Below, in pieces: positions 1 to 14,678 of a stretch of 15,734 nt of DNA (position 1 is the first letter of the stretch; each line of letters starts with the position of its first letter). The stretch lies in the UHGV virus genome UHGV-0194232; one strand, given 5' to 3'. The notes beneath the pieces were generated by a model. It worked only from the letters and a program-made list of their open reading frames with translations. It was not told where the DNA came from and made no database searches. A program made the position numbers and the translations under genes. The DNA comes from a virus.

Positions 1-982
1 GAATATTTTTTAATGCTGTCGCCACACCATTCTGGAAACGAAATACATGCTGACCATTCGCATAAACATCCAGAATACCATCACCGTTTTGTTTTATACC
101 TGTATCGTTATCCCCGAAAGCAATTGAGTTACCGCCCAGTGCGTTCTGAACACCGATACCCAGCGCACCATTCACCTGTGAACCACCGCCAACAGACACT
201 TTGTGCGACATGGATATTTCACCCGTCCGCAAATTTATGGTGAACGGACGCAGGGGACCAATATCGCCATTCTCGCCCTGACCTTCACTGGTAGGAATAA
301 GGTGCAGGCACTCTTCCGAACGACGAAAAATCAGACCAAAGGCTTCGTTGAAAATCCTCAGCGCATTAACACCACGGATTTTCAGTTCCCCGCTCATGGT
401 GTCACCATCACGCTGAACGGCATTTTTTGCCTTGTCCACCGTGGGTTTTAATCCGAGGTTTTCAACAGCCTCATCCTTGTCTTCCACATCCGAAAGATTC
501 TTTTTTCGTTGCAGATAGCGTCTGTCTCCGGTTTCCTGAGTAATAATGGCCCTGTCCGGATCAACTTCCAGCACCACGTTTTGTGCGTGCGTCAGCCCAA
601 GAACCAGCGTCAGAATAACTTCCTTGATAACGGAGTCCGTCTGGTCTGGTAAAAAGGTGTCGGGATAACGTCCGTAGGCGATAAGCGTACCTCTGTCGCT
701 GATCATCCCCAGTTCACGAAGGGTTTTACCGGGGTATGATTTACAGTCAATCACAATATCCCCGCTGATGAAACCCTCCTCCACCGCACCGTCGGAAAAG
801 GGTTCCTGCCCGAATGCGCCGTACAACGATGTCATTGCTGCCATTTCATCCGGCGTGGATGGCAATGCCCGCCCGCCCCCGTCACCAAGCAGAACATGCC
901 GGACGGTCACGGTTTGCCCGTTCTGATATGCTGATTCAATTTCTGCCGCGCCAGCTGTCGTCAGGGTTAATCCTGATGCCAT
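1..982 (-). CDS. H: Tail fibre protein, P2 gpH-like; partial (N-terminal 327 codons, 3' end lies beyond the left edge of the window)
   Basis: Not in the ORF track because it has no in-window stop. Manual minus-strand translation from ATG at 982..980 gives MASGLTLTTAGAAEIESAYQNGQTVTVRHVLLGDGGG... and, at the window edge, ...ALGGNSIAFGDNDTGIKQNGDGILDVYANGQHVFRFQNGVATALKNI. Both stretches match recalled P2 gpH (N-terminal TTAGAAKLA...MAVGDGGG; internal ALGGSSIVLGDNDTGFKQNGDGILDVYANSQRVFRFQNGVAIAFKNIQ). A GAGGTG Shine-Dalgarno lies about 10 nt upstream of the ATG. Confidence 0.8.
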   Translation of the reverse strand, partial: MASGLTLTTAGAAEIESAYQNGQTVTVRHVLLGDGGGRALPSTPDEMAAMTSLYGAFGQEPFSDGAVEEGFISGDIVIDCKSYPGKTLRELGMISDRGTLIAYGRYPDTFLPDQTDSVIKEVILTLVLGLTHAQNVVLEVDPDRAIITQETGDRRYLQRKKNLSDVEDKDEAVENLGLKPTVDKAKNAVQRDGDTMSGELKIRGVNALRIFNEAFGLIFRRSEECLHLIPTSEGQGENGDIGPLRPFTINLRTGEISMSHKVSVGGGSQVNGALGIGVQNALGGNSIAFGDNDTGIKQNGDGILDVYANGQHVFRFQNGVATALKNI

Positions 983-1004
983 GATTCGTTTCACCTCGTA
1001 AAAA

Positions 1005-3416
1005 TCAGTCCGTCAGCTGCGGACAGTCATAAAACGTTTCTGATACTGATGCCGGGGACGGAAACTTCGTCATAAACGTCGACCGGCTTCCTGTCACCCG
1101 GTGGCAGTTTTTGAACAACGCGCTCAGGTTACAGCCTGCCGGGAATTTCTCTGTGAAAATATCGTTAATATCCATCTCCAGCGAATTACAGCCTGTAAAT
1201 GTGGCCATCAGGGAAATTGCGCTGGTTTGCGGAGCAATCAGGCCAGTCGGGATCCGGCGCAGCGCCACACACCCCTGAAACATTTTTTCCGGGTCGTTGA
1301 TCCTGCTTCCGGCAAACAACACCTCCTGAATTTCCTCCAGCGAAGCGCAGGACGCAAACAACATCCAGGTTCTGGTCAGACTGTTGCATCCGGCAAGCAT
1401 ATCGTCCGGCAGACGGCGAAGGGCTCTGCACCCCTTGAATGTCCCGACCATCGCTTTCAGCGAACGACACCCAGAAAGCATCCCGCCCCCGATACTCTCC
1501 AGCGACAGACAACCATCAAAAAGGTAATTGCACTGTTCGAGACGTACTGCATCCGCCAGCAGATTTTTCCCTGCTTTAACCAGATTTGTACACCCGCAAA
1601 ATACCGTCATACACGACGTCAGGTTTCTGGCGTTCATGAAAACAGCCTCTCCCACCGAAACCAGTGATGTACAGTTCTCAAAACACCGGTCAATCACCTT
1701 GCATTCCGGCAAACCGGCTAACAGGCGATCAGGTATATACTGCAACCCTGTACAACCACGAAACGTCATGGATAAGTTGCCAATACGATTTTTTATTCCG
1801 TCAAAATATCCCGCAGGCAACAGAGTGAGCCCACTGCATGACTCAAATGTCCGGTTAAAGGTTACCTGTAGCCGGTTTTCCCCTTCCCCCGGCAACAGTT
1901 CCGGCAGTTCCGACAGGGACTGACAGTTATAAAACGCCTCCGAAAGCGATGTTATTCTGCGGGTGGGGATACGCGGTGCCACGGCAAGTCGTTTGCAGCC
2001 ATAGAACGCCGATGTCAGACTTTCCAGATTTTCTGCCGGCTCCAGTAATCCCGCCGGCACTTCCGTCAGGGCTGCGCAGCCATAAAACAACTGAGAAAAA
2101 TTTGTCGCCATGCGGGCGGACAAAAACATCCCCTCCGGCACCACCGTCAGCCGGGTACAGCCATAAAACACGGCGTAAAACGACGTCACTGACGGGCAGC
2201 CGGCAAACAGATTTTCCGGCAAATCCGTCAGCGCAGTACAGCCACGAAACGCACGTGCAAACGTGGTGACCTTTTCCAGAGTGTCAAACGCCCCTGCATG
2301 AATTTTTCGCAGCGCATTCTGCGTGTTGGCAAATCCTTCCATACTGGTGCGGGTGCCACTGATTTCGATAATCTCAAGCAATGAACAGGTTACCGGTGAC
2401 GTACTTCGGTAGAACATCAGGCTTTCACAGTTCCTGACCGTCAGCGTCACTTCCTCCCCTGACGTCAGGGGGCGGGTGGCCATGACTGAATTCCCTGAAA
2501 TCGTGTAATCCCTGCCTGCCACACCATCGCCGTAATCAATGGTAAAATCGGTGTCTCTGCTGTCATCGATTAAGAACAGCGGTCTGCTCACACTGTCAAT
2601 GCGCACCACAACACGGGCTACCGCCACCACTTTTACAGCCAGCGTGGCAGCCACCCCGTTTGACGTCATGACACTCACTGTTGTGGCTCCGCACTGCCTG
2701 GCGGTCAGGGTGATGACATCGCCATCAACCTGTATATCAGCCACACGCTCGTCTGCCAGGTGGACAGTGAAGGAGCGGTCTTCGGCGATTAGTGGCAATA
2801 TCGTCACCTGTACGGACGCCGTTTCACCGGGTGCCAGTTGCACACTGTCCGGCGACAACAGGATCTGTGATGGCATGATTTTATTTTTCAGTTTTTCCGT
2901 CGCCGTCACATAACCATAACCATATCCGTTCCCCCGGCAGTTTCCATAAACGTGAATACTGAACCAGCTGCGCAGATTTTTGGCCCGTAGTACGGCATGT
3001 TTCAAATCCTGGTGGTCGCTCATCAGAACCGGCAGATCCTTCTGCTCCACATTCAGCCGGAAGGTATAAGGATCTCCCGGTGGCGTCTGCTCATACCACT
3101 CCACAATCTGCGACCGGAACGGACTGTCTGCCAGGGATTCATTCAGTGCGGCTTTTGTTCCCCTGTGACGATGGATATAGGCAGCACGTTTTATCGCTGC
3201 CCTTTTTTCCGCCTCTGTCCAGTGCTCATTCCAGGTATCCACTGACATTTCCCAGGCCAGCCATGGCAGCAATTCCGTCGGACATAAATCGGGATTTTTG
3301 ACATAGCGGATCAGACAGACCGCGATTTCCGCCAGCATATCACCGGCGGTACTGTCCACCACCCGCTCTGCCCGGCTGGCGCTGACCGGTAGTATGCTTC
3401 TGATTTTGTCATTCAT
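1005..3416 (-). CDS. I: Baseplate wedge protein, P2 gpI-like N-terminal domain fused to a C-terminal Ig-like domain plus BspA-type leucine-rich repeats (803 aa)
   Basis: ORF 1005..3416, ATG at 3416 overlapping the gpJ stop (ATGAATGA). The N-terminal ~175 aa align with recalled P2 gpI (NPDLCPTELLPWLAWEMSVDTW vs NPDTCPANLLPWLAWAFSVDRW; PPGDPYTFRL vs DPPGTFRL). Residues ~180-260 look like a bacterial Ig-like fold (LAPGETASVQVTILP...TVSVMTSNGVAATLAVKV). Residues ~340-803 carry about 20 repeats of an F-x-G-C-x-x-L-x-x-hP motif (AFRGCTALTDLP, VFYGCTRLTVVP, LFYGCAALTEVP, AFYGCKRLAVAP, AFYNCQSLSELP, TFRGCTGLQYIP ...). Confidence 0.85.
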   Translation of the reverse strand: MNDKIRSILPVSASRAERVVDSTAGDMLAEIAVCLIRYVKNPDLCPTELLPWLAWEMSVDTWNEHWTEAEKRAAIKRAAYIHRHRGTKAALNESLADSPFRSQIVEWYEQTPPGDPYTFRLNVEQKDLPVLMSDHQDLKHAVLRAKNLRSWFSIHVYGNCRGNGYGYGYVTATEKLKNKIMPSQILLSPDSVQLAPGETASVQVTILPLIAEDRSFTVHLADERVADIQVDGDVITLTARQCGATTVSVMTSNGVAATLAVKVVAVARVVVRIDSVSRPLFLIDDSRDTDFTIDYGDGVAGRDYTISGNSVMATRPLTSGEEVTLTVRNCESLMFYRSTSPVTCSLLEIIEISGTRTSMEGFANTQNALRKIHAGAFDTLEKVTTFARAFRGCTALTDLPENLFAGCPSVTSFYAVFYGCTRLTVVPEGMFLSARMATNFSQLFYGCAALTEVPAGLLEPAENLESLTSAFYGCKRLAVAPRIPTRRITSLSEAFYNCQSLSELPELLPGEGENRLQVTFNRTFESCSGLTLLPAGYFDGIKNRIGNLSMTFRGCTGLQYIPDRLLAGLPECKVIDRCFENCTSLVSVGEAVFMNARNLTSCMTVFCGCTNLVKAGKNLLADAVRLEQCNYLFDGCLSLESIGGGMLSGCRSLKAMVGTFKGCRALRRLPDDMLAGCNSLTRTWMLFASCASLEEIQEVLFAGSRINDPEKMFQGCVALRRIPTGLIAPQTSAISLMATFTGCNSLEMDINDIFTEKFPAGCNLSALFKNCHRVTGSRSTFMTKFPSPASVSETFYDCPQLTD

Positions 3417-4323
3417 CGGTTGTCTCCACCTTGTTCAGTGTGACTGAGCGACACCATGGAGCCTGCCCCATCACCGGAACAATATCACTGGCCGGCGATT
3501 TCAGTGCCACCGTAATCACCCCCGTCTGATGCAGGGCTCCGTCCATACCTGAGCAGGACGCCACAGAGCCAATCCGGTGCACACTGTCAGTGTAGGCCTG
3601 CAGCGCCTGGCGGGCATTTTTCATCACCAGTTCACCATCCAGCCCGTAGGGAATATGGATATCCGCCACCACATCGTAGGGAATAATTTCTGCCGCACGG
3701 ACGCTGACAAAATCCGTCAGGGGTCGAATTTCATCATCATTGACTGACGCCGCCACCTTATCCAGCAGGGGTTGTGATGCCGTACCATTTCCTGTACGCG
3801 CTAACACATAAAGAAAAACACGCCCTTCCTGTGAATGCGTTTCCGGTCCGTAGGCTTTCACATCCAGCACATCAGGATCGGCACTCTGTGCAAAATAGTG
3901 GTATGCGTTTCTCGCGCCTGCGGTGCTGAGTCGTGCCCATGACAACTGAATACGTTCGCGAAAAGCGTCATCATCTTCATACACCGCAGGCGTGGGCGGA
4001 ATAGTGCTGTCATCTGCCGGGGTAATCACCAGACGTTGCACCTGAAAATTCGCACCAATCTGATCCAGGTCGTTCCTCCGGGCGCTCGCAAGCAATACAC
4101 CCCGGACAGCATCATTGACCTGCTGGCGCATCAGCGCCACCCGAAAAGCCAGTGTCTCTGCCCATTTATACGCCGGATCGGATTCCACCAGGGCCGAAAA
4201 CAACGTGTCCAGCTCCTGATACTTCGCCACTATCTGAGTGACCAGCACAGCTGTGTCCGGCACTTCCACCGCATCCGGTACCGGTATCGCGGACAGATCA
4301 ATGATTGCCTGAGACGTTGCCAA
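3409..4323 (-). CDS. J: Baseplate assembly protein, P2 gpJ-like (304 aa)
   Basis: ORF 3409..4323 aligns over its full length with recalled P2 gpJ (IIDLSAIPVPD vs IIDLNQLPAPD; ITPADDSTIPPTPAV identical block). It starts with TTG at 4323, preceded by GAGGAG at about 7-8 nt; no in-frame ATG is nearby. Confidence 0.9.
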   Translation of the reverse strand: MATSQAIIDLSAIPVPDAVEVPDTAVLVTQIVAKYQELDTLFSALVESDPAYKWAETLAFRVALMRQQVNDAVRGVLLASARRNDLDQIGANFQVQRLVITPADDSTIPPTPAVYEDDDAFRERIQLSWARLSTAGARNAYHYFAQSADPDVLDVKAYGPETHSQEGRVFLYVLARTGNGTASQPLLDKVAASVNDDEIRPLTDFVSVRAAEIIPYDVVADIHIPYGLDGELVMKNARQALQAYTDSVHRIGSVASCSGMDGALHQTGVITVALKSPASDIVPVMGQAPWCRSVTLNKVETTDE

Positions 4324-4654
4324 TTTTTATCTCCTCGAGTCGAATCGTTTCCTGTGTCTCGTTGTTCACCCCAACAAGCGTCAGCCAGGCGCTTCCTTCT
4401 CCTGTCCATGTCACCTCCACCCGCCGGAGGGTCAGGCGGGGTTCCCAGCGCTCAAGGGCGGTTGCCGTTTCACGGACAATCCTCACCCGCGTAAAATCAT
4501 CCTGCGGGTTATCAAGCAGACTGAACAACCTGCTGCCGTATTCCCTGAGAAGTACCCGGCTGCCGACCGGTGTTGATAAAATATCGGTGACGGACTGACG
4601 CAGGTGTTCGTTACCGTGCAGATATCTGCCAGTGGCGGAATCAATACCAATCAT
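4298..4654 (-). CDS. W: Baseplate protein, P2 gpW-like (GPW/gp25 family), 118 aa
   Basis: ORF 4298..4693 contains ILSTPVGSRVLLREYGSRLFSLLD...ERWEPRLTL, matching recalled P2 gpW (ILRTPVGSRVMRRDYGSLLASMID...LKWEPRVTL). ATG at 4654 gives a P2-like length. An alternative GTG at 4693 overlaps the gpV stop (GTGA) but would place the hairpin/T9 tract inside the coding sequence. Confidence 0.75.
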   Translation of the reverse strand: MIGIDSATGRYLHGNEHLRQSVTDILSTPVGSRVLLREYGSRLFSLLDNPQDDFTRVRIVRETATALERWEPRLTLRRVEVTWTGEGSAWLTLVGVNNETQETIRLEEIKIGNVSGNH

Positions 4655-4663
4655 GAAATTTTT

Positions 4664-4690
4664 CCGAAAAAAAAACGCCGGTGCGGCGTT
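4664..4690 (-). terminator. Candidate weak intrinsic terminator or attenuator between gpV and gpW
   Basis: On the minus strand: a short GC hairpin (arms cgccg/cggcg at 4676-4680 and 4684-4688, 3-nt loop, extendable by two A:U pairs) directly followed by a run of 9 U (plus-strand A run 4667-4675). It sits immediately after the gpV stop codon. Confidence 0.4.
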
Positions 4691-5313
4691 CACATTTCCT
4701 GGTTAGGTTTACGGGTGGTTCCCCCGCTGTCGCCAGGGTGATCATGAGTATTATAAATTTCGCGAATTTTACTCATGCTACCGGTTTTGTCGGTGATCTC
4801 CTGTGAGGCACCGATATTGCCCAGAACCTGCGTATCGGCATTAATCTTCGTTTTTCCCTGCACAGTCAGGGTATCCGTGATTTCCACCGGACCGTCAAGC
4901 GTTCCCCTGCCGGTGATTTTATAGCTGCCGCCTTCAGCCAGCGTGATGGACAGGGCATTAGCCTGGCGGTCGTAACGGATCTCCGTTCCGGTATCAAACA
5001 AAATAACATGCTCGTGTTCACTGCCCGCCGGTACCGGAATCGCGTCAATGTTGGCCCCCGGATACACCCGACCATTACGCAGATCGCCCGCCTCCGATAT
5101 CACTGTGACCGCATCTCCTGGTGCCGGGTAATTACTGACCTGCATGTAACGCCCGGACTGCACCTGAATCCATGGCAACGGCGGCGAAAGCACATCTCCG
5201 ATATCCACCCGGACCATCACCGGGCTACCCGGGATCACCTCTTCCACCACGCCGCGACGGACCATGTCCGCCACCCTGCGGCGTAACTCTGCCACTTCAT
5301 CCGCCAGACTCAT
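4690..5313 (-). CDS. V: Baseplate spike / assembly protein, P2 gpV-like (207 aa)
   Basis: C-terminal HDHPGDSGGTTRKP matches recalled P2 gpV HKHPGDSGGTTGSP, and the N-terminal region aligns with the gpV start. ORF track extends to 5607, but the start was chosen at ATG 5313 (MSLADEVAELRRRVADMV) on homology and a GGAGGG Shine-Dalgarno upstream; the longer version would overlap the upstream gene by ~300 nt. Confidence 0.85.
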   Translation of the reverse strand: MSLADEVAELRRRVADMVRRGVVEEVIPGSPVMVRVDIGDVLSPPLPWIQVQSGRYMQVSNYPAPGDAVTVISEAGDLRNGRVYPGANIDAIPVPAGSEHEHVILFDTGTEIRYDRQANALSITLAEGGSYKITGRGTLDGPVEITDTLTVQGKTKINADTQVLGNIGASQEITDKTGSMSKIREIYNTHDHPGDSGGTTRKPNQEM

Positions 5314-5860
5314 CGCCAGTACCCTCCGCTTTCCAGATAAGACGATAATCCTGCACATGCTTTTTACCGGTTTCCGGTACTTTACCCAGCCAGACTTCCT
5401 GTAACGGCACACCTGCCGGAACCGCAAACGGATCTTCGCCGATCGGAATGTCCTGTTCAAAAGAAACACGGAAAACGATGTAGTCGTCCAGCAGCCGGTC
5501 GAAGGTATCCACCTCAGCATCGATAAAAACCGCCGGGTCAACGTTATCCAGCCCGAACGTGGCTCCATCAATCCAGTCAGATAAATCCATCGCCAGACAG
5601 CGGGCAAAAATCTGCGGTTTTGGCACGTTTTCCGTCTTCCCGGCCCGGTCTGTCACCACAAACAGATCGCATTTCAGCGTGACCCGTGTCTGCCCGTCGG
5701 CAAACTGAGCCTTGTCCCATCCGGGTACATCCACAAACACGGCAGGCGTCACCAGTTGCGTCACTTTTTCCGGGTACTCATCGGCATCTTCCACCCAGGG
5801 AATTTGTTTCAGACTGTCAATCACTGCCTGATGCCAGGTTCCCATCATCAATGGTTCCAT
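5297..5860 (-). CDS. Hypothetical virion protein (187 aa), possibly tail-completion / head-tail joining
   Basis: ORF 5297..5863; ATG at 5860 overlaps the upstream gene's TGA in a TGATG arrangement, with AAGGGG/GGAG upstream. Same strand and tight packing within the structural operon. No family recognised with confidence; only a weak resemblance to P2 gpR. The position matches P2 R/S just upstream of V. Confidence 0.55.
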   Translation of the reverse strand: MEPLMMGTWHQAVIDSLKQIPWVEDADEYPEKVTQLVTPAVFVDVPGWDKAQFADGQTRVTLKCDLFVVTDRAGKTENVPKPQIFARCLAMDLSDWIDGATFGLDNVDPAVFIDAEVDTFDRLLDDYIVFRVSFEQDIPIGEDPFAVPAGVPLQEVWLGKVPETGKKHVQDYRLIWKAEGTGDESGG

Positions 5861-6582
5861 CACTCCATCCCCTTAAATACCCGGAATTTCAGTTCATGCT
5901 CAAAATTTTTCAGGATCAGTGCTTCCGCATCCGGAAAAACAAAATCCTCTATACGGTTCAGCATGGCTTCATAAATATCAATTTCTGCTTCGCGCACCCT
6001 ACGTCGTCCGGATGCCTGCCGAACCAGGACAGTCTTACGCCGTGAAATGCGTCCGCTCCGGTTTTCAGACTCAAATTCATTAATGAAAGCCTCTTCACCT
6101 GACCAGGTAGTGACCGGTATTGCCTCTCCGGCAGGTTTAAAACGAATCTCCGGCGCTTTCCTGCGGCGGGAAGCCGGTGCAAAACGCCCCCGTTCATCGC
6201 GCAACTGATGGCGTTCGCCGCGTCGCCCCCCACTGATGCGTCCGCGCAGATCACGTACTTTGATGGCGTTCAGGCCAAACCACACCTTTGCCTCATCAAA
6301 CTCATCGCCATTTCGACGAATGACAAAAGCATTCAGGACACGGTTTTTGATCATTTTCTGGCTGCGTGGCGCAACCTGTTTTTTAAACTCTGCCATGGCC
6401 TTCATCCGCAGTGCGGACGCGGCTCTTTTCAGCGCCACACCCCAGGCTTTACGGATCTGACTTTTTGAACCACCCAGTTTCGCGATAATTTTCAGCACCT
6501 CATCCTCGTCAATATCGACGACGAGGTTTCGTGCCAGCCGTCGCTGCCGGGCACTGCTTCGCTCATGCTCTCTGACTGCCAT
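5860..6582 (-). CDS. Hypothetical virion protein (240 aa), Arg/Gly-rich basic centre
   Basis: ORF 5860..6642; first ATG at 6582 (MAVREHERSS...), which still overlaps the FII 3' end by 20 nt, with only a weak Shine-Dalgarno. Contains a strongly basic segment (RGRISGGRRGERHQLRDERGRFAPASRRRKAPE). No confident homolog recalled. Confidence 0.5.
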   Translation of the reverse strand: MAVREHERSSARQRRLARNLVVDIDEDEVLKIIAKLGGSKSQIRKAWGVALKRAASALRMKAMAEFKKQVAPRSQKMIKNRVLNAFVIRRNGDEFDEAKVWFGLNAIKVRDLRGRISGGRRGERHQLRDERGRFAPASRRRKAPEIRFKPAGEAIPVTTWSGEEAFINEFESENRSGRISRRKTVLVRQASGRRRVREAEIDIYEAMLNRIEDFVFPDAEALILKNFEHELKFRVFKGME

Positions 6583-6967
6583 AACGTTTACTCGGTCGGA
6601 CAGGGGCGGCAGGTGTACTTCTTCCGGGTTCTCCCCGCGCAAGAGTAATGGTAATCACACCATGACCCGCAGTACCCGACTCATCCCAGCCGGGATCGAC
6701 CACCTGGTAGGGTTCGCCGTGGATCATGACCCTGTCATATTTTTTCAGACCGGCGGCCCATGTGCTCCGGGTAAATAACACGGGCGCAGTATCACGAATT
6801 TCGCCACTGCCAGTGTTCATCCCGGTGTTATCTGCCGGGGCATCAAAAACGGCACGGATTTTTCTTTCCGTGCCGCCCGGATATATGCTGATTTCCGTCC
6901 CCATCGTATCCAGGATGATGTTATCCGCATCACTCATGGCCTGATCGAACAGATTATCAAACATCAT
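6563..6967 (-). CDS. FII: Head-tail joining (head completion) protein, lambda gpFII-like
   Basis: N-terminus MMFDNLFDQAMSDAD matches recalled lambda FII MADFDNLFDAAIARAD. Its ATG overlaps the FI stop (TAATG). Confidence 0.8.
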   Translation of the reverse strand: MMFDNLFDQAMSDADNIILDTMGTEISIYPGGTERKIRAVFDAPADNTGMNTGSGEIRDTAPVLFTRSTWAAGLKKYDRVMIHGEPYQVVDPGWDESGTAGHGVITITLARGEPGRSTPAAPVRPSKRYGSQRA

Positions 6968-7332: not shown

Positions 7333-7350
7333 CACATCTCTCCCGTACGC

Positions 7351-7377: not shown

Positions 7378-7382
7378 CCGTC

Positions 7383-8411
7383 TTATTTCACCTGAACCAC
7401 CACAAACGCGTCAGGATCCGGCAACACCATCAACGGCGCAGACTGCGTCATGGTATATTCGCAACCAGGATCACCCACCTCCAGCCAGTGTTTTGGATAA
7501 CGAATTGCAGAGGTGATCCCTTCACTCAGCGCCTGATTATCCTGAATGGCACCATAACAACGGACGCCTTCCGCCTGAGTATTCCCCAGAATCAGTGTAC
7601 CTTCCGGCAGATAACGCTGTTCATCCCCGTTTTCGTCAACATACGTTGTCTTCGCCACAACAATGGCCAGATCACCGTAATACCCCTTAAAAGAGACCAC
7701 TGAGCCCAGATCTTTCAGCGCGGTTTCCAGTTCCGATTTTGAACCACGACGGGTATCCAGTTTTTCACGGAAAAGCTTAAAGCCATTCAGCATACGCCAG
7801 ACCGTGCCATCCATAATCGCGATATTGATGGTCCCTGAGGCAAAATCGCAGTACGCATCCAGATCGTGCGTTGGATCAAAGGTGTCAGCATTCTGCTGTG
7901 ACCATTCGCGTCCGCCAGCCTGCGTAATGTTATTGACGGCAGAGCGCCCAAAATCCACTTCCACCGTCTCAAACTGTTCCCCGCTCATGGTGTACTTCCC
8001 CTGCAGAACGGCACTGACCGCCTGCATTTCTTCCACCTGCACAATCGCCTGCTCTTCCTGCTTCAGGTTGTCAGTCAGAATACGCAGGCGGCGGTAGGCC
8101 GGGTCATTAAGACGGGCCGGATCTTCCCCCGGCAGACGTTCCACTGCCTGCTGATAATCAAAGCGGTGTTTTGGTTTTACATAACCGGGACGTAACACGC
8201 GGGTTTCACCACCACGGCTGCGCAGCACTTTGCCTGACACCACCGGAGACACATACGCCGCAACCGGTGTTTTGCCGGTAATTTTATCCAGCATGACTTC
8301 CTGAGTATGGAAAGTGATCGTGCGACGAAAGAACAGCTCCAGAAACAGCGCACGAAATTTCACTTTCTGCTCGGTGTACCCGAGTAACTGACGCGTGGTA
8401 AATAACCCCAT
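7383..8411 (-). CDS. E: Major capsid protein, lambda gpE-like (342 aa)
   Basis: Full-length collinear similarity to recalled lambda gpE, including identical blocks AIVQVEEMQAVSAVL, LRPGYVKPKH-type motif, DTRRGSKSELETA and TQSAPLM. Length 342 vs 341 aa in lambda. Confidence 0.95.
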   Translation of the reverse strand: MGLFTTRQLLGYTEQKVKFRALFLELFFRRTITFHTQEVMLDKITGKTPVAAYVSPVVSGKVLRSRGGETRVLRPGYVKPKHRFDYQQAVERLPGEDPARLNDPAYRRLRILTDNLKQEEQAIVQVEEMQAVSAVLQGKYTMSGEQFETVEVDFGRSAVNNITQAGGREWSQQNADTFDPTHDLDAYCDFASGTINIAIMDGTVWRMLNGFKLFREKLDTRRGSKSELETALKDLGSVVSFKGYYGDLAIVVAKTTYVDENGDEQRYLPEGTLILGNTQAEGVRCYGAIQDNQALSEGITSAIRYPKHWLEVGDPGCEYTMTQSAPLMVLPDPDAFVVVQVK

Positions 8412-8434
8412 AATTTATTTTCCTTCAGAAACAC

Positions 8435-8462: not shown

Positions 8463-8480
8463 CAGTCAATCACTTCACCA

Positions 8481-8816
8481 TCAGGCGTGGCTGATGGCAC
8501 TTCCCACAAATGCGTTGGCTTTTTTCACCGCATCCACAGAGTCAGGCCAGACCAGCGACTCAGTGGCAAACGTACCGCTTTTGTAGTACGTCAGTGTGGG
8601 TTCTGTTCCGGCAAGCGCCAGAGCCAACACGCCCACTGCCGTTCCGGCTTTCTGACCATCCCATGCCACCAGTTTGCCGGTGGCGTCATCCAGCATCAGT
8701 GGCGTCAGTGCAGGCGTGGCAGCACTGATACCACTGGTGGCTGTTGCGGTATGCGCCGGATCGCTTCCGGCAAAAATATGCACATCCGCGCGCTTTTCTG
8801 TGGTTGTTTTAATCAT
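8481..8816 (-). CDS. D: Head decoration protein, lambda gpD-like (111 aa)
   Basis: [22 protein letters not shown] and YKSGTF motifs are collinear with recalled lambda gpD. AGGAGA Shine-Dalgarno 8 nt upstream of ATG 8816. Confidence 0.95.
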
Positions 8817-8854
8817 TTTTCAGTCTCCTGATTTATCTGAATCACGGATAACGC

Positions 8855-9565
8855 TTACGGCATACTCATCAGCAGATCTTCTTCTCCGTGCCCGGCAGTT
8901 CCGCCTCCGGAAACCGCACTGGCAGCATGCTGTGCCATAAAGCGATCAAAAAGTGTTTCCTGTGACGGTTGCGATGCCGCCGGTGCGGCTGCCAGCAACG
9001 TTTTCGCCTGCGCCACCGTCATTCCCGGTTGTTCTGCCAGTGCCTGTGCAAGTTGCTTGCGCCCTTTCGCCTCCGGCAGCGCCATAATCTGATCGCCGAC
9101 ACTTGGAGAACCGGCAACCGGTGCCGCCGCCAGTAACGTTTTTGCCTGGTCAACGGTCATTCCCGGCTGTTCAGCCAGCGCCTGCGCGAGTTGTTCACGC
9201 CCTTTAGCTTCCGGCAACGCCATAATCTGATCGCCTGTGCCTGCAGCACCGGCAGCAGGGGCTGCCGCCAGAAACGCTTTCGCCTGCTCCACCGTCATCC
9301 CCGGTTGACCTGCCAGCATCTGTGCCAGTTGCTCACGCCCCTTTGCTTCCGGCAGCGCCATAATCTGATCACCCGTGCTGTCAGTACCGGCAACCGGCGC
9401 AGCTGCAAGCAACGTTTTCGCCTGCTCAACCGTCATTCCAGGCTGACCTGCCAGCATTTGCGCCAGTTGCTCGCGCCCTTTCGCCTCCTGACAATTCAGG
9501 ATCCCCATCACGCGCTGATTTTCCTGGGCCACCGCTTCAGCAACGGTGAGATTTTTAACAGTCAT
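8855..9565 (-). CDS. Nu3-like scaffolding protein, in-frame nested within the 3' part of C (236 aa)
   Basis: Internal ATG at 9565 (MTVKNLTVAEAV...) is preceded by a strong AAGGAG Shine-Dalgarno at about 5 nt. By analogy with lambda Nu3, which is translated in-frame from inside C. The region contains the MGILNC and GMTV motifs seen in the lambda C/Nu3 C-terminus. Confidence 0.5.
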   Translation of the reverse strand: MTVKNLTVAEAVAQENQRVMGILNCQEAKGREQLAQMLAGQPGMTVEQAKTLLAAAPVAGTDSTGDQIMALPEAKGREQLAQMLAGQPGMTVEQAKAFLAAAPAAGAAGTGDQIMALPEAKGREQLAQALAEQPGMTVDQAKTLLAAAPVAGSPSVGDQIMALPEAKGRKQLAQALAEQPGMTVAQAKTLLAAAPAASQPSQETLFDRFMAQHAASAVSGGGTAGHGEEDLLMSMP

Positions 9566-10471
9566 TGCATTCTCCTTCGTAACAGAGTCATTCAGTGCAG
9601 AAACCATCACTTCAACGGCATCTGCAGCATTAATCAGTTGATCAGCCAGGCCTGCATCAATGCCTGCCTGACCGTCATAAACGGCAGCCTCAGTATTCAT
9701 CACCGCCTCTGAACTCAGCCCCGTATAAAGCGCCACTTTGTCGACAAACATCCGGCGGGCCTCATCAATACGGCGCTGAAAATCTGCACGCACACCTGCC
9801 GGCAATGCCTGAATACTGTTGCCGTCAACCTTGTGCTGCCCGGAGTAAATCAGCGTGATATCCACCCCTTCCTGTGCCAGTTGTTTCTCGTAACTGGTGT
9901 GCGCCATCATCACACCAATCGAACCAATTTTTGCCGTCTGCGTGACCAGCCGACGCGTACAGGCTGCCGCCAGCAACATGGCGGCTGAACAGGCCATATC
10001 ATTACACAGCGCCCACACGGGCTTCTGTTCCCGCAGGCGGTAAATCATGTCAGCACAGTCAAACGCCCCGGCAGCCTGACCGCCCGGGCTGTCGATATCC
10101 AGCAAAATGCCGCGCACATCCGGATCATTCACCGCCATCTGAAGACGGGCCGTCAGGCCGTCATAGCCTGTCATGCCGGAGTAAGGGCGCAGGGTACCCA
10201 GTTTATGCACCAGCGTGCCGCTCACCGGCAGAATGGCGATGCCATTCTTCACCTGGTAACTCTTTGCCGGACGCTGACCGCCCGCCATATAGTCAGTCAC
10301 AGCCAGTTGCATACCATCAGCATCAAGCTGAACAGCCTGCTGAGGAACGGCAAGGCTGCCGGCCCCCATCTCTTTACCCAGCGCGCAAAAGAAAACCCGC
10401 GCATAGGCGGGTTCCAGTAAAAGCGGCTCATTAAATGCCATGGCGGCAATATGCGATAAATTACGACGCAT
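8855..10471 (-). CDS. C: Prohead protease / minor capsid protein, lambda gpC-like (S49 peptidase family), 538 aa with an expanded repeat-containing C-terminus
   Basis: N-terminal ~300 aa align with recalled lambda gpC (HIAAMAFNEPLLLEPAYARVFFCAL vs HIASMAFNEPLMLEPAYARVFFCAL; VTQTAKIGSIGVMMAH; ITLIYSGQHKVDGN). The ATG at 10471 overlaps the portal stop. It is about 100 aa longer than lambda C because of the tandem repeats. Confidence 0.9.
   Translation of the reverse strand: MRRNLSHIAAMAFNEPLLLEPAYARVFFCALGKEMGAGSLAVPQQAVQLDADGMQLAVTDYMAGGQRPAKSYQVKNGIAILPVSGTLVHKLGTLRPYSGMTGYDGLTARLQMAVNDPDVRGILLDIDSPGGQAAGAFDCADMIYRLREQKPVWALCNDMACSAAMLLAAACTRRLVTQTAKIGSIGVMMAHTSYEKQLAQEGVDITLIYSGQHKVDGNSIQALPAGVRADFQRRIDEARRMFVDKVALYTGLSSEAVMNTEAAVYDGQAGIDAGLADQLINAADAVEVMVSALNDSVTKENAMTVKNLTVAEAVAQENQRVMGILNCQEAKGREQLAQMLAGQPGMTVEQAKTLLAAAPVAGTDSTGDQIMALPEAKGREQLAQMLAGQPGMTVEQAKAFLAAAPAAGAAGTGDQIMALPEAKGREQLAQALAEQPGMTVDQAKTLLAAAPVAGSPSVGDQIMALPEAKGRKQLAQALAEQPGMTVAQAKTLLAAAPAASQPSQETLFDRFMAQHAASAVSGGGTAGHGEEDLLMSMP
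8978..9487 (-). repeat. In-frame tandem repeat, 138-bp unit (46 aa), about 3.7 copies, inside the scaffold domain of C/Nu3
   Basis: Protein unit ALPEAKGREQLAQ(M/A)LA(G/E)QPGMTV(E/D/A)QAK(T/A)(L/F)LAAAP(V/A)AG...GDQIM occurs four times. At DNA level the landmark gccataatctgatc recurs at 9083, 9221 and 9359 (period 138). Copies are about 80% identical by eye. Lambda C has a single copy of the corresponding segment. Confidence 0.85.
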
Positions 10472-12032
10472 CGCCTTTTCCTCCCGTTGTCTGTCGGATC
10501 TGCTGCTGAAACGTATCCTTTATCCAGATGGGGCGGGGAAGACCGGCAGCCTGTCGCTCCTGGCTTTCACGCAGTTGCTGGCGGAAAATCTCCTGATAGT
10601 CATCTCCCATCAGGGCCAGCTCCTTCTCGTATGTACTCAGGCCACCTTCAATACGCATCACCGCCTCCTGCACCTCCTTAAGGCCATCAATCGCCATGCG
10701 GCCGGCACCAATCCACTCGGCACGACACCACCCGGAACGGGCCTCCCAGAATGAGAAACGGGATTTCGGCGGGCGGATCACACCGCGAATAAGGGCTTCC
10801 TCCAGCCAGCAGGCAAACATCTGTGATGCCAGACGGCTGGCCACAAATTTTCGTTTCCCCATAAAATACCGCCACGACTCATTGGCGGATGCCCTGGCAC
10901 TGGAATAACTGACCTGTGAATAATCACGGGAAAGTTGCTCATAGGACACGCCCAGTCCGGCAGCAATGTAACGTAACAGCGCCTTTTCCAGTTCAGAGAA
11001 ACCATTATCCGCATTCTGTGCTGTCTGCAGATTCAGTGAATCCCCCGGATAAAGATGCGGAATACGAACCCCACCCATCTTTACCGTATTGGTGGCGTAA
11101 TAGCGCGCATACCCTTTCATGATGGTGTTCAGGGGATTTTTACCGCCATCTCCCACCCCGGCGATATATTCAAATGCTTTTTCCGAATCCAGTGTGGATT
11201 CAATCGTCGCGGCATACATCGCCCGCACCACCGCCGACTGCAGTTGCGTGGCCTGTAGTGTGTCGAGCATCTTGAGGCGCTCCATCACGGAATAAAACTG
11301 GTTGGCCCCGCGCGTCTGTCCGTCCTCCTGCGGCTGAAACACATGGATCATTCCCGGTCGCCCGGAGGGCAGCGTCGCCGCAATCCGTGTCCAGTTGCTG
11401 ACACCGTAGCCAGGCCAGTCATCGTCCTGAACATGATAAGCCATCGCCTTTCCGTGACGGTTGATTTCCACTCCGGCACGCATAAAACGATCGCCGATGC
11501 CATAACCGGGCGTGCTGACGCGCTTCGGACTGATGGTCTTGAATTTTGTTCTGAATAATGACGTGGATTCCGTATCCCATACGGGCTGGACAAAAATTTC
11601 ACCGTTAAAAGTATGGACCCCCACCCCTTCACGAATAAATTCGGTAAACGAGCGACGCCCTTCCACATCCATCGAACCAAATACCGGATCGCAATATTCC
11701 ATCCACGCCGCCTCCACATCTTCAATAAAGGCATGCGAATCAGCTTCTGACATCCCCAGCCAGCGCCAGTTGGGTCGGTAGCTCAGGCGAAACATGTGAC
11801 CGACGATATGGTCTTTATGAATTTCCACAGCATTTGCGGCAATACCGTTGTTACGGACCAGATCGTCCGCACGGGCGTTACCCAGCTGAATGGAAGGTAA
11901 GAGCGCCACATCAGCACTTTCCGGTGCTGGCAACCATTCAGCCAGTTGCCCACCGAATCCGGAGCCGCCGCCGGAATATCCCATACTCTGCCGCAAAGGT
12001 TGCCCGTGAAGATCCACCAGTCCCCCGCTCAC
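10461..12032 (-). CDS. B: Portal protein, lambda gpB-like (523 aa)
   Basis: Collinear with recalled lambda gpB (GGGSGFGGQL, GNARADDLVRNNG, FRTKFKTISPKR, DGQTRGAN, LRYIAAGLGVSYEQLSR, GRMAIDGLKEVQEAVM). Starts with GTG at 12032, with AGGAG about 8 nt upstream; overlaps the W stop. Confidence 0.95.
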   Translation of the reverse strand: MSGGLVDLHGQPLRQSMGYSGGGSGFGGQLAEWLPAPESADVALLPSIQLGNARADDLVRNNGIAANAVEIHKDHIVGHMFRLSYRPNWRWLGMSEADSHAFIEDVEAAWMEYCDPVFGSMDVEGRRSFTEFIREGVGVHTFNGEIFVQPVWDTESTSLFRTKFKTISPKRVSTPGYGIGDRFMRAGVEINRHGKAMAYHVQDDDWPGYGVSNWTRIAATLPSGRPGMIHVFQPQEDGQTRGANQFYSVMERLKMLDTLQATQLQSAVVRAMYAATIESTLDSEKAFEYIAGVGDGGKNPLNTIMKGYARYYATNTVKMGGVRIPHLYPGDSLNLQTAQNADNGFSELEKALLRYIAAGLGVSYEQLSRDYSQVSYSSARASANESWRYFMGKRKFVASRLASQMFACWLEEALIRGVIRPPKSRFSFWEARSGWCRAEWIGAGRMAIDGLKEVQEAVMRIEGGLSTYEKELALMGDDYQEIFRQQLRESQERQAAGLPRPIWIKDTFQQQIRQTTGGKGDAS

Positions 12033-12238
12033 AGTCGTACTCCTGCAGGGCCACGGCGACGACCGGACATTCCAAGCGCACTTTCAATTTCCTCAATATA
12101 TCGCCGTAATTCATTAATCGTCGCCCGCGAATACTGTATCTGTCGTCCGTTCTTACTGACAGAAGCCACAGCACGCCCGATCATCAGTTCATGCAGCGCC
12201 CGACGCGCTTCGCAAAGCATCTCATGTGTATAAATCAT
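12029..12238 (-). CDS. W: Head-tail connector / DNA stabilisation protein, lambda gpW-like (69 aa)
   Basis: ARRALHELMIGRAVASVSKNGRQIQY...RRRGPAGV matches recalled lambda gpW ([26 protein letters not shown]...RRRGPAGF). ATG at 12238 with GGAGGA 6 nt upstream. Confidence 0.85.
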   Translation of the reverse strand: MIYTHEMLCEARRALHELMIGRAVASVSKNGRQIQYSRATINELRRYIEEIESALGMSGRRRGPAGVRL

Positions 12239-12241
12239 CAC

Positions 12242-14158
12242 TTATCCTCCACTCAGTGCAGCCGCAATTTCTTCCAGACTCATATCATCCTCATCCTGCT
12301 CATCTCTTCGTGCCCGGGCCAGTGCCTCAAGGTCCAGTTGCCATCGTTGAACTGAAATACGCAGGGCAGCATAGGCATATACCAGGCAGTCGAGGGCTTC
12401 ATTGCGTCGCCCTTTTTTATCCCACAGCAGTTTCACCCTGCCATTAACCACCTTCTCCACCAGTTCTTCCGCCACGATTTGACGCGCCTCTTCTTCCGAA
12501 AAAATGTCCGGGTTATCCGGAAAGCGGAAGGTATACGGGGCGGCTTCACTGGCAGAAACCACCGGCAGGGCAAAACGGGCGTACAGCATTTCCTTGACGG
12601 TATCGGAGCCCACCTCACACAAAAACACACCACGCTGGTTACGCTTTTTGGGCATGGTGATCACCGGCTTGCCGTACACCGATGCCCCTTTAATGGGAAG
12701 CACAAAAAAAGTGCCGTGTTTTCTGGAACGCTGATACACAATGTCCTGGTCAATACCACCGGTATCCCAGCAGACACGGGAAATGGAAATTTCAGTACCG
12801 TCAGCATGGCGGTATTTTTTCCGGATCACCGCATCAACACGTTTAAGGGTGTCCTCGTCTTCCGGTCGCCCCATGATAATTTGCTTGTCAATCAGAAAGG
12901 CTTCTTCGCCAGGAGCCCAGCCCCAGACATAAATTTCATAGCGATCTTTCTGGGAGTCGATCCCGGCGGTCAGGTAAACCACCCGCAGGGGAACCTGCGC
13001 GCCATAGTGACAGACCTTTTCCAGCAATAACTCGAAACTCAGCTTTTCTGCCACAGCCTCTTCATAGGGCTCCCCGAGTGTGGTGTTAATAAACGTCTTG
13101 ACGCCGTTCGGATCCTTCAGCGCATCCAGCCAGTCGTAGACAATCTGCACCCAGGTGGTGAACGGACTGTACGCCGTCCAGATGTGGTACGAGATTGAGC
13201 GTGGTGGCGGCATCTCCTCATCACCGGCGCTGTAAAATGTCAGGCCGTCACGCGTCCACATCCCGGTATTGTCACAAATCCAGCGTCCGTCGGTCTGGTC
13301 AAGTTCCGACTGCCGGATCACACAGCCATTATGTTCACACAGGTAATACACCGTTTCCGGTTTACCCTTCTCCCATTTCAGGCCAAACGGCGTCGCATCA
13401 TCGCCAAACTTCAGATACTGGGTCTCCCCGCAATGAGGGCAAGGGACATAAAACCGCATGAAATGCGCAGATTCATTCGTGGCTTTCTCAATCTGGCAGG
13501 AGCCTTTAATTTTTGGCGTTGAGCCGCGTATGGATTTAGGCCATACCGAGCCTTCGATACGTTTATCGCCAAGCAACGTCGGCGAACCTTCTTTTTCCAC
13601 ATCCGGTTCAAACGAGGAGAGTTCGTCATAGCAGACCACATCCACAGATTTTTCACGGTAGTTTTTAGCAGCGGCACCACCCAGGCACCAGAAACCCACG
13701 CCGGAGGAAAAACGCTTCAGGGTGAGTGTATTATCGCGGTGCTTTCTTCCGAACCATGGAGCCAGCTCCAGCAATGCAGGGACATCCCTTATCGTTGGCT
13801 CAACATGAGATTTCATGAAATCTTCTGCAGCAGAATCTGTTGGCTGAAAAAGCAGACTGTTACGGGATTTATGCTCAATAAAATAAGCCTCCACCCCCAA
13901 CAGCATTTTGGTGTAACCAACGCGCGCCGATTTAATCAGATTAACAGTGCGGATCCGGTCATTTCCCATGCTGTTCATAATGGCGATCTGAAACGGCAGT
14001 GTTTCCCATTGCCCGGGGGTATATGAAGACTCTTTCGGCAGATAATAATGTCGATCAGCCCACTGAACTGTCGTCAGTGGAACCGGAATATTGAGAGATA
14101 AAAGCCCTGTGACTATCGCACCGGCTGCATTAGCTGCCTTCTGTGCGTCTGAAATCAT
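12242..14158 (-). CDS. A: Terminase large subunit, lambda gpA-like (638 aa)
   Basis: Extensive collinear identity with recalled lambda gpA ([156 protein letters not shown]). Start chosen at ATG 14158: it has an AGGTGGA Shine-Dalgarno and gives a lambda-like N-terminal length. ATG 14200 (ORF track) has no Shine-Dalgarno. Confidence 0.95.
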
Positions 14159-14678
14159 CAATCCACCTGCCCACGTTTTCACCGGCTTTAGCTGCAACAT
14201 TGGAGGCTTTTGCGATTTCAGTTTTCACCACATCAAGGTGTGACGGTGAAATATCCGGATATTTACGCTGTAATGTCAGCGGCACTCGTACAAGTATTCC
14301 CGAAATCTCCTGAGCCACACGTTGCAGAATGAAGGTAAACAATTCCGTTTCCAGCACCAGCCCTTCTTCGCGGGCATTTTTCAGCTCCTGTGCGTCAGCC
14401 TGTGCTTTTGTGAGCCGGTAGCGTTCATAGTCAATGGTGCCGGGTTGTAAATCTGATTCTGCAGCCGCACGCAAGTCTTCCAGTTCTTTGCGGAGCTTTT
14501 CGTTTTCGATATCTTTTTCCCGCTGCGCATACCACTCAATGGCTTCTGCAGTATTGAACATGGCCTCGATGCCTTTGCCTCCCCCCGACAAAATTCTCAG
14601 CCCCTGACTTTGCCAGCCAGTGATTGTTCTGACATCGCACTCAAAAATCTCCGCCAGTTTCTTTTTGTTAACCTTCAT
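14130..14678 (-). CDS. nu1: Terminase small subunit, lambda gpNu1-like (182 aa)
   Basis: [12 protein letters not shown]...[10 protein letters not shown]...GGGKG...IENEKLR...[28 protein letters not shown] matches recalled lambda Nu1 nearly collinearly. ATG at 14678 with GAGGG about 9 nt upstream. The 3' end overlaps the A start, as in lambda. Confidence 0.95.

Follow-up and report, generated by a model that had tools for sequence, protein, structure and literature searches.

Gene content of the window and its lambda-type half

The window, by which we mean the whole 15,734-nt stretch of virus genome UHGV-0194232 analyzed here, carries 16 intact genes, all on the minus strand and densely packed, with intergenic spacings of -29 to +69 nt. 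They run in the order Nu1-A-W-B-C-D-E-FI-FII, followed by genes for a Z-like protein and a tail terminator and then by P2-like V-W-J-I-H. The first nine had been annotated at first pass as collinear homologs of lambda genes, and this was borne out by BLASTP, in which all nine matched their lambda and phage 21 counterparts in the same order, with amino acid identities of 33-67% to lambda and 28-88% to phage 21. Pfam analysis of contigs carrying identical genes revealed GpA, gpW, Phage_portal_2, S49, HDPD, and Phage_cap_E domains.

A cos region is predicted at 14700..14870 (minus strand), comprising a candidate cosN near 14855-14867, with the palindrome GTACGCGTAC, and a cosB-like block downstream. 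Alignment showed that this region shares the blocks CGCTATTTATGAAAATTTT and CCGTTCTTCTTC with the left ends of lambda and phage 21. A search for the lambda 12-nt cohesive-end sequence GGGCGGCGACCT, allowing 2 mismatches, found no copy, and we treat the cos nick positions as putative. Nu1 (14130..14678), the 182-aa terminase small subunit, is 88% identical to its phage 21 counterpart and 52% identical to that of lambda; its start codon is the one chosen among the ORF starts. The gene for the 638-aa terminase large subunit, A (12242..14158; 82% to phage 21 and 65% to lambda), encodes GpA_ATPase and GpA_nuclease domains, as detected by Pfam on an identical gene.

The head genes proper include those for the 523-aa portal protein, B (10461..12032; 73% to phage 21 and 62% to lambda; Pfam Phage_portal_2), and the 538-aa S49 prohead protease/scaffold, C (8855..10471; 60% to phage 21 and 54% to lambda; Peptidase_S49). 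A 138-nt (46-aa) tandem repeat is present in C in 3.7 copies, at 8980-9488. The 111-aa head decoration protein, D (8481..8816), is 76% identical to that of phage 21 and 60% identical to that of lambda, with a Pfam HDPD match, and the 342-aa major capsid protein, E (7383..8411; Phage_cap_E), is 83% and 59% identical, respectively.

The remaining head genes are less similar to those of phage 21. Head W (12029..12238), which encodes a 69-aa head-tail adaptor of the Ad1 type (phrog_75, E 1e-29), shows only 48% amino acid identity to both lambda W and phage 21 W. It has no nucleotide similarity to phage 21, whereas the adjoining A and B genes align at 72-82%; head W forms a divergent island inside the head module. 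The 121-aa DNA-packaging chaperone, FI (6967..7332; Pfam Packaging_FI, PF14000, E 4.9e-14), is 38% identical to that of phage 21 by BLASTP and 40% identical to that of lambda over the N-terminal 40 aa only, and nucleotide similarity to phage 21 stops within FI, at 7214. The 133-aa head closure protein (Hc1), FII (6563..6964; Pfam Phage_attach, PF05354, E 1.6e-12; phrog_82, E 3e-29), is 33% identical to that of lambda and 28% identical to that of phage 21 by BLASTP. Its best identity to any FII among 50,697 phage records was at most 35%, and we regard it as a divergent allele. The break in the module had been placed at the boundary between FII and the tail genes; this placement has to be revised, in that nucleotide similarity to phage 21 is lost at W and again from mid-FI onward instead.

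Two genes between FII and V

Two genes described at first pass as unknowns follow FII. The first (5860..6582, minus strand) encodes a basic 240-aa protein (pI 10.9; phrog_27, E 4e-26), predicted to be a gpZ-like tail completion (Neck1) protein, and the second (5297..5860, minus strand) encodes an acidic 187-aa protein (pI 4.2; phrog_1072), predicted to be a tail terminator of the PA0615 collar family. This basic/acidic charge pattern matches that of the Z/U and S/R pairs. The FII, Z-like, terminator, and V ORFs overlap by 20, 1, and 17 nt in turn, the terminator gene overlapping its neighbors by 1 nt and, in the case of V, by 17 nt.

These three overlaps span what would be the junction if the window combined parts of two unrelated prophages, the head region of a lambdoid siphovirus and a P2-like tail region, brought side by side by an insertion accident. 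The only point in favor of such an accident is that the best-known relatives of the halves differ. Neither an integrase nor an attachment site nor a P2 head gene lies between or near the halves, and the identical arrangement is found in isolated phages; the synteny effectively refutes this explanation, which we find scarcely credible.

By BLASTP and Pfam, neither the Z-like protein nor the terminator could be matched with lambda Z/U or P2 R/S, and hhalign comparison of both family alignments with single sequences found nothing for lambda Z, P2 S, or P2 R. A weak N-terminal match between the terminator family and lambda U (hhalign, E 0.001, probability 22%) is suggestive only. Pfam assigned neither protein to the gpR (PF06891) or gpS (PF05069) family. 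PF06891 was matched by 0 of 134 terminator-family members, and some members matched Pfam Phage_Mu_Gp37 or Phage_tail_terminator. When a profile of the family (134 sequences, A3) was compared with PDB sequences by hmmsearch, it matched chain 6u5f_A ("Collar PA0615") over the full length with an E value of 3.8e-34, profile positions 2-170 aligning with chain residues 1-164; with a smaller, 8-sequence profile, the PA0615 match was found at E 0.0014. An exhaustive search of representatives placed 350 of them in the family, including the pyocin collar, and a word-indexed protein search gave 9 relatives. An AlphaFold2 monomer of the terminator based on an 8-sequence alignment had a pLDDT of 42, and the predicted fold is taken solely from sequence-profile homology. 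In a preprint on the cryo-EM of P2, the terminator gpR is described as homologous to tailocin cap proteins and is compared with the R2-pyocin collar PA0615 (10.64898/2026.09.14.750843).

The Z-like protein has no direct Pfam Minor_tail_Z match. Among its family members, one matched Minor_tail_Z marginally (E 0.021), and a transitive link was obtained through Wolbachia phage WO: the family HMM matched a WO protein (E 7e-5), which itself matched Minor_tail_Z with an E value of 4.7e-12. Comparison of the Z-like profile with PDB sequences gave spurious matches only. The 90%-identity cluster of this protein has 1,223 members, and among 40 that were read, all 27 named ones are called "hypothetical protein."

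These analyses suggest that the two proteins are ordinary neck proteins, namely, a gpZ-like tail completion protein and a tail terminator. The first-pass view that the genes after FII are not lambda-like holds insofar as no BLASTP or Pfam match to Z/U exists, but the genes are not orphans. Likewise, the proposal that they act as adaptors is right about their place at the head-tail interface but not about novelty, both belonging to widespread families (phrog_27 and the PA0615 collar). Functional names are thereby supplied for two proteins that are "hypothetical" in public databases. In addition, the terminator is tied to the R2-pyocin collar, the one family member whose structure has been solved, which provides a structural template for the possible docking of a lambda-type FII on a contractile tail.

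The same proteins bear on the notion that the locus is a recent chimera, in which a lambda head was recombined onto a P2 tail and the heterologous FII-tail interface was bridged by two novel, lineage-specific adaptors. Such an origin would fit their lack of BLASTP or Pfam similarity to lambda Z/U and P2 R/S, and W (48%) and FII (28%) resemble their phage 21 counterparts far less than do the head genes around them (60-88%), as expected of a remodeled neck. However, membership of both proteins in widespread families, 350 representatives in the case of the terminator, argues against lineage-specific adaptors, and the same FII/Z-like/terminator/V block, with the terminator homolog directly upstream of V, is present in Hafnia phage yong2, Citrobacter phage Chris1, Vibrio phage Valp1, and WO. 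Identity to Valp1 is 34-49% for the head genes and 28-49% for the tail genes, and this similar divergence fits codescent of the whole module. We therefore regard a recent chimera as very unlikely.

P2-type tail genes within and beyond the window

The presence of P2-like V, W, J, I, and H genes in P2 order, as annotated at first pass, was confirmed by BLASTP to P2 and by Pfam, with the additions that I is an 803-aa fusion and that H is cut at the left edge. The 207-aa baseplate spike, V (4690..5313, minus strand, as are all genes of this half), shares 27% identity with P2 gpV along its whole length (E 9e-18) and matches phrog_9992. Baseplate W (4298..4654) encodes a 118-aa gp25-like wedge protein/sheath initiator that is 39% identical to P2 gpW and has a Pfam GPW_gp25 domain. 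The 35-nt gap between V and baseplate W holds a terminator-like hairpin. The 304-aa baseplate wedge protein J (3409..4323) is 40% identical to P2 gpJ (E 2e-63; Pfam Baseplate_J).

I (1005..3416) encodes a wedge protein fused to an Ig-like (Big_2) domain and a BspA-type LRR. Pfam analysis placed Tail_P2_I at residues 9-149 (E 1.6e-35) and Big_2 at residues 185-255, together with LRR_5, and BLASTP gave 41% identity to P2 I in the N-terminal domain only. The Ig-LRR extension varies between strains; the protein is 196 aa long in one sister prophage and 861 aa in another. In P2-like phages of Klebsiella, the long "tail protein I" shares 32% identity with the extension. H (1..982), a tail-collar fiber protein, begins at 982 and is cut by the left edge, leaving its N-terminal 327 aa in the window; it aligns in part with P2 gpH, at 42% identity, and in an identical contig it is 475 aa long with a Pfam Phage_tail_fib match.

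Sheath, tube, and tape-measure genes had been predicted beyond the left edge, and a tail fiber assembly gene had been named as another gene to look for there. All are present in contig L009, which is 99.97% identical to window positions 1-13416 and carries H, a fiber chaperone, sheath, tube, a chaperone, a 550-aa tape measure, U, X, and D. The P2 homologs in this contig, which are 22-46% identical to their P2 counterparts, are X, V, W, J, I, H, G, FI, FII, U, and D.

At least 80% of the window is present in 48 of 5,426 complete Escherichia coli genomes (approximately 1%), and proteins more than 99% identical recur across many independent assemblies. One further copy (contig L011) has a truncated FII and an altered chaperone/sheath region, and it follows from the disrupted genes in some copies that individual prophages of this type can be defective. 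The frameshifts or truncations in some copies would also be expected if the locus were a defective remnant or a domesticated tailocin-like element whose genes are kept without an infectious phage. Such prophages do occupy known cryptic-prophage hot spots, for example beside truncated ydfJ, and the terminator family also serves headless R-pyocins. A degenerate remnant would be indicated by absent tail genes and by disruption of V, W, J, I, and H; we found the window genes intact and the tail genes present in L009. Moreover, the 16 genes are tightly coupled and include a complete head and packaging set that would be superfluous for a tailocin; a cos-like site is present; Q, lysis, and replication genes are kept in sister prophages; and the recurrence of nearly identical proteins in independent assemblies also points away from decay. 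A remnant or tailocin-like element is thus unlikely.

Proposed assembly and comparison with known phages

The window most probably comes from an E. coli prophage, a lambdoid temperate myovirus with a lambda-type head, a P2-type contractile tail, and an ordinary neck, and would span two thirds of its late (virion) operon, on the promoter-proximal side. The identities, order, and intactness of the genes and the full set of tail genes are read from the sequences, that of L009 included, and from these we infer protein-protein contacts, ring stoichiometry, regulation, and particle morphology. The Nu1/A terminase, of the lambda cos type, would package DNA into a lambda-type head in which B is the portal, C the protease/scaffold, D the decoration protein, and E the capsid protein, FI serving as packaging chaperone; head W (Ad1) and FII (Hc1) would then close the filled head. 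Tails would be assembled separately on a P2-type baseplate made of the V spike, the W, J, and I wedge proteins, and H fibers, with tube, sheath, tape measure, U, X, and D supplied from just past the left edge. The acidic PA0615-family terminator is predicted to form a ring capping tube and sheath, the basic gpZ-like protein to complete the head-proximal end of the tail, and FII to dock on the terminator when head and tail are joined. The neck would then be an ordinary Ad1-Hc1-Neck1-terminator set, like W-FII-Z-U of lambda, and only the distal tail would be of the contractile P2 type.

Expression probably depends on a lambdoid Q-antiterminated late transcript and not on P2-type Ogr-dependent promoters. 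The late operon recurs in sister E. coli prophages, which also have an antiterminator Q and lysis genes and lack an annotated Ogr, and a tblastn search with P2 ogr found no match in a 49-kb sister prophage region that has Q; in the window's own genome, the regulatory region lies outside the window.

A further reading, possible but doubtful, is that a small coadapted cassette (W, FII, the Z-like protein, and the terminator) sets head-tail compatibility, and that the Ig-LRR extension of I may be a second, swappable receptor-binding device on the P2-type baseplate. If so, the cassette would let a head close to that of phage 21 (Nu1-E, 60-88%) work on a contractile tail, and specificity-determining W and FII alleles would explain why only these two form divergence islands in the conserved head module. 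The W/FII divergence and the facultative extension of gpI are modest, testable leads on head-tail joining specificity and host range. Otherwise, the analysis is mainly clarifying, in that the striking placement of a lambda head on a P2 tail is already established among phages.

Indeed, this combination is a known, long-established architecture and not a new chimera; its age is indicated by the same gene order in Valp1 and WO. The description of the locus as a mosaic is apt in that a lambda-type head/packaging module is joined to a P2-type baseplate/fiber cassette, but the junction is not new, the order A-W-B-C-D-E-(FI)-FII-Z-like-terminator-V-W-J-I being kept in both phages. A literature search pairing a lambda-like head with a P2-like tail returned no match.

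Valp1, which belongs with the VP882/phiHAP-1/VHML-type (Hapunavirus-like) telomere phages, has the same virion order from the small terminase through U, X, and D: terminases, Ad1 (W), portal, protease, a gene at the D position, capsid E, a gene at the FI position, Hc1 (FII), Neck1, the terminator homolog, V, W, J, I, fiber, sheath, tube, chaperone, tape measure, U, X, and D. By electron microscopy, Valp1 has the contractile tail of a myovirus (PMC11054321). According to Lavigne et al. (PMC2771037), the tail operons V and F are all that HAP1-like phages have in common with P2. Phages of this type are linear-plasmid prophages with protelomerase and ParAB, and they have an extra PAAR gene and a small gene between V and W. 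In contrast, the E. coli prophage is integrated and lambdoid, carries a Q antiterminator, RusA, and hok, and has Nu1-E genes much closer to those of coliphage 21.

WO (proposed Symbioviridae) has the same order of gpA, gpW, a lambda-family portal, gpC, gpD, capsid, an FII-like protein (Phage_attach), Minor_tail_Z, a homolog of the terminator, V, W, J, and I. Its head, connector/baseplate, tail fiber, and tail modules have been described relative to lambda, P2, T4, and Mu (PMC9203015). It differs in having a PAAR gene after V, serine recombinase integration, a eukaryotic association module, and a tail module apart from the baseplate module, and its identities are much lower (24-46%).

Relative to lambda and phage 21, the genes from Nu1 to FII are collinear, most head genes are 60-88% identical to those of phage 21, and the putative cos region aligns with theirs; W, the FI C terminus, and FII are divergent alleles here. 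The roles of Z and U would be filled by the next two genes, and the lambda/21 tail V-G-T-H-M-L-K-I-J is replaced by a contractile P2-type tail. Relative to P2 (Peduoviridae), V-W-J-I-H-G and FI-FII...U-D are kept in P2 order. Searches of the window-identical contig and a sister prophage with P2 Q, P, O, N, M, adaptor L, R, and S gave no tblastn match at E ≤ 1e-3. The P2 neck consists of portal-gpL-gpR (10.64898/2026.09.14.750843). Here, W and FII stand in place of gpL, and X lies between U and D.

Nakayama et al. reportedly described in 2000 a pyocin gene order of collar-V-W-J-I-H-G-sheath-tube-chaperone-tape measure-U-X-D, and this cassette order matches the tail of the E. coli prophage. In the R2-type pyocin of Pseudomonas aeruginosa (PA0615-PA0628), the collar PA0615 (6u5f) is a full-length homolog of the terminator. 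PA0615-PA0628 form the R-pyocin structural cassette, in which PA0622 is the sheath (PMC11871291). Unlike the prophage, the R2 pyocin is without a head, FII, and Z-like gene, and the terminator described here must also offer a head-binding face. Among isolated phages, yong2 and Chris1 come closest for FII, the Z-like gene, the terminator, and V (31-63%), as well as for W, J, and I. The early region of yong2 is lambdoid too (cI, cII, RusA, and an antiterminator). Both differ from the E. coli element in having a protease-capsid fusion rather than C-D-E and in carrying the sheath-to-D genes between V and W.

Head genes and their similarity to phage 21

All genes in the window lie in a single unbroken string on the minus strand. 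The 16 intact genes are spaced at -29 to +69 nt, and none contains an internal stop; start codons were selected to agree with those annotated on identical contigs. Nine of them (14678 to 6563) follow the lambda order Nu1-A-W-B-C-D-E-FI-FII. Their products share 33 to 65% amino acid identity with lambda by BLASTP (FI is alike over its first 40 residues only), and the Pfam and PHROG calls are consistent with lambda-type head identities. The head proteins are closer to those of coliphage 21 than to those of lambda, with amino acid identities of 88% (Nu1), 82% (A), 48% (lambda-type W), 73% (B), 60% (C), 76% (D), 83% (E), 38% (FI), and 28% (FII). The top phage nucleotide matches were likewise phage 21-like heads, at approximately 77%.

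Several local features of this region were noted. Gene C carries a 138-nt tandem repeat (8980-9488; 3.7 copies, 80% matches) encoding approximately four copies of a 46-aa unit (…ALPEAKGREQLAQMLAGQPGMTVEQAKTLLAAAP…) in the stretch equivalent to the Nu3 scaffold of lambda. At 538 aa, C is longer than its counterparts in lambda (439 aa) and phage 21 (501 aa). Strong terminator-like hairpins are present on the coding strand in the D-E gap (8435-8459) and just after E (7359-7379), the latter upstream of the position (7214) where the similarity of FI to phage 21 stops. The putative cos region upstream of Nu1 is homologous to that of lambda and phage 21. Within it, a candidate cosN (14855-14867), which includes the perfect 10-bp palindrome GTACGCGTAC, is unlike the cohesive end of either phage, and the cosB-like blocks alongside are conserved. 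A minus-strand 147-aa open reading frame between the lysis region and cos (15128-15571) belongs to phrog_1935 (unknown function; E value of 1e-66); a hairpin comes after it, at about 15090-15120.

Nucleotide similarity to phage 21 spans 12300-14554, 9420-11973, and 7214-8810; it misses W (12029-12238) and stops about 40 codons into FI. Two islands, W and 6563-7214 (the FI C terminus plus FII), thus lack such similarity, and the head module around them is 72 to 82% identical to phage 21. The FI-FII region had no nucleotide match among 50,697 phage records, and its FII shares no more than 35% identity with that of any phage. Since W is skipped and FII has diverged, both are divergent alleles inside a phage 21-like head. 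W and FII, stacked on each other, complete the head where it leads to the tail. Phage 21 and lambda, which have a common tail, are 65% identical in FII and 97 to 99% identical in Z and U. This pattern suggests that W and FII may have co-adapted with the myovirus terminator. However, W is only about 50% identical even between lambda and phage 21.

The two genes between FII and V

Neither of the two genes following FII, which the first-pass annotation had left as unknown adaptor candidates, gave a BLASTP or Pfam match to lambda Z/U or P2 R/S. The first (gene 1; 5860-6582, 240 aa) was assigned to PHROG 27, "tail completion or Neck1 protein" (E value of 4e-26). The protein at the equivalent position in Wolbachia phage WO is a true member of Pfam Minor_tail_Z (gpZ; E value of 4.7e-12) and was matched by an HMM of the gene 1 family with an E value of 7e-5 (database size set to 10,000). 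The ortholog in Vibrio phage Valp1 is 28% identical and scores slightly under the Minor_tail_Z threshold. The pI of the gene 1 product is 10.9 (lambda Z, 12.0; P2 S, 10.5). From the PHROG assignment and this transitive evidence, we conclude that gene 1 encodes a putative tail-completion protein equivalent to Z (or S).

The second gene (gene 2; 5297-5860, 187 aa) falls in PHROG 1072, a family without an assigned function. Searching exhaustively with a profile gave 350 cluster representatives. A profile of 134 of them had a single match among solved proteins, to the R2-pyocin collar PA0615 (6u5f), over its full length with an E value of 3.8e-34, and a few family members match Pfam Phage_Mu_Gp37 and Phage_tail_terminator. 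A 2026 cryo-EM preprint on P2 (10.64898/2026.09.14.750843) names gpR as the P2 tail terminator, describes it as homologous to the tailocin cap protein, and compares it with PA0615. The pI of the gene 2 product is 4.2 (lambda U, 4.1; P2 R, 4.5). We conclude that gene 2 encodes the predicted tail terminator, equivalent to U (or R). With genes 1 and 2 as Z/U equivalents, functional collinearity with lambda would run two genes past FII, and we conclude that the P2-type genes begin at V. What the analysis newly provides is names for two "hypothetical" proteins and the position of the real divergence.

Baseplate genes and the tail genes beyond the left edge

Downstream of the head half, V, W, J, I, and H occur in P2 order, with 27, 39, 40, 41 (I; N-terminal domain only), and 42% (H; part of its length) identity to P2. 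H starts at 982 and leaves the window at the left edge. BLASTP, Pfam, and PHROG analyses thus confirmed the proposed succession of lambda-type head genes and P2-like baseplate genes. The description of I as P2-like held for its Tail_P2_I domain and failed for its size: it is an 803-aa protein in which a Big_2 Ig-like domain and leucine-rich repeats of the BspA type are fused to this domain.

The C-terminal extension of I (gene at 1005-3416, minus strand), comprising these Big_2 and repeat domains, is approximately 650 aa long. I is 196 aa in one sister prophage and 861 aa in that of Escherichia coli strain 401651, whose extension does not align with that of the window at the nucleotide level. 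The window's extension shares 32% identity with a 1,008-aa "tail protein I" from P2-like phages of Klebsiella; the leucine-rich repeats within it resemble tail proteins from Phapecoctavirus and from jumbo phages of Klebsiella. The extension may serve as a second, exchangeable module for receptor binding. Between V and W, a terminator-like hairpin (4655-4691; 8-bp stem, then a T-run) takes up the 35-nt gap, at the exact spot where Hafnia phage yong2 and Citrobacter phage Chris1 carry the sheath-to-D genes as an insertion; the hairpin may mark the edge of a module or act as an attenuator.

Contig L009 (NCBI assembly GCA_018567765.1), 99.97% identical to window positions 1-13416, continues beyond the left edge. 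It encodes H (475 aa), a Caudo_TAP fibre chaperone, sheath (491 aa), tube (172 aa), a Phage_TAC_7 chaperone, a tape-measure-sized protein (550 aa), and gpU, gpX, and gpD. The contractile-tail gene set anticipated there is therefore present and complete on this contig. The refuting outcome proposed with the prediction, missing sheath or tube genes alongside disrupted or unexpressed baseplate genes, was not observed. Homology to P2 was detected for X, V, W, J, I, H, G, FI, FII, U, and D; none was detected when P2 Q, P, O, N, M, L, R, S, E, T, and ogr were sought. After gpD, L009 carries a second fibre-like gene (20382-21815; 477 aa, Pfam phage_tail_N), behind which sister contigs such as L008 have a 63-aa open reading frame. 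This fibre-like gene is absent from the strain 401651 prophage and encodes 608 aa in E. coli strain C012.

Sister prophages in complete E. coli genomes (93 to 96% identity) carry this late operon too, preceded by lambdoid genes for Q, RusA, and lysis. At least 80% of the window is present in 48 of 5,426 complete E. coli genomes, some copies in other genomes are decayed, and the exact 803-aa I was found on at least 24 public contigs.

Proposed assembly and relationship to known systems

In the pathway that we infer, Nu1 and A would cut cos and package into a B/C/D/E head, which lambda-type W and FII would close. The tail would assemble independently on a V/W/J/I baseplate with H fibres; a PA0615-family ring would terminate it, and the basic Z-like protein would sit at the proximal tube end. 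Joining would occur through FII-terminator contact. Transcription probably falls within a Q-antiterminated lambdoid late operon, because the genes are tightly packed, Q lies upstream in the sister prophages, and no ogr homolog was detected.

Valp1, a telomere phage with a contractile tail by electron microscopy (PMC11054321), has the same order in its head genes (terminase, W, lambda-family portal, protease, D-position gene, capsid, [FI], FII), its neck and baseplate genes (Z-like protein, terminator, V, W, J, I, fibre), and its distal tail genes (sheath, tube, tape measure, U, X, D). WO also has this order, but its tail module lies apart from the baseplate module (PMC9203015). Divergence from Valp1 is about equal for head (34 to 49% identity) and tail (28 to 49% identity) proteins, consistent with common descent of the entire virion module. 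The FII/Z-like/terminator/V block recurs in yong2 and Chris1, where, in contrast, another capsid type adjoins it and the sheath-to-D genes follow V. The architecture is therefore known and widespread. The first-pass annotation's mosaic thus does not extend to the overall order, which is old and common to Valp1 and WO; mosaicism is local and finer grained, relative to phage 21.

The element is outside Peduoviridae, because P2 head genes, adaptor L, R/S, and Ogr were tested for and are absent, and it is not a lambda-like siphovirus either. By its genes, it groups with the temperate myoviruses combining a lambda-type head with a P2-type tail. HAP1-like phages have only the V and F tail operons in common with P2 (Lavigne et al., PMC2771037).

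The tail cassette of the prophage opens with a homolog of PA0615, and X is placed between U and D. The R2-pyocin cassette PA0615-PA0628, as reported by Nakayama and colleagues in 2000, matches this arrangement. The limits of the pyocin cassette are PA0615-PA0628 (PMC11871291). A PA0615-type terminator and X between U and D are common to the prophage lineage and R-type pyocins and are not found in P2 itself. This hints that R-pyocins may derive from the tail-module type of this prophage lineage rather than from a P2-like phage proper.
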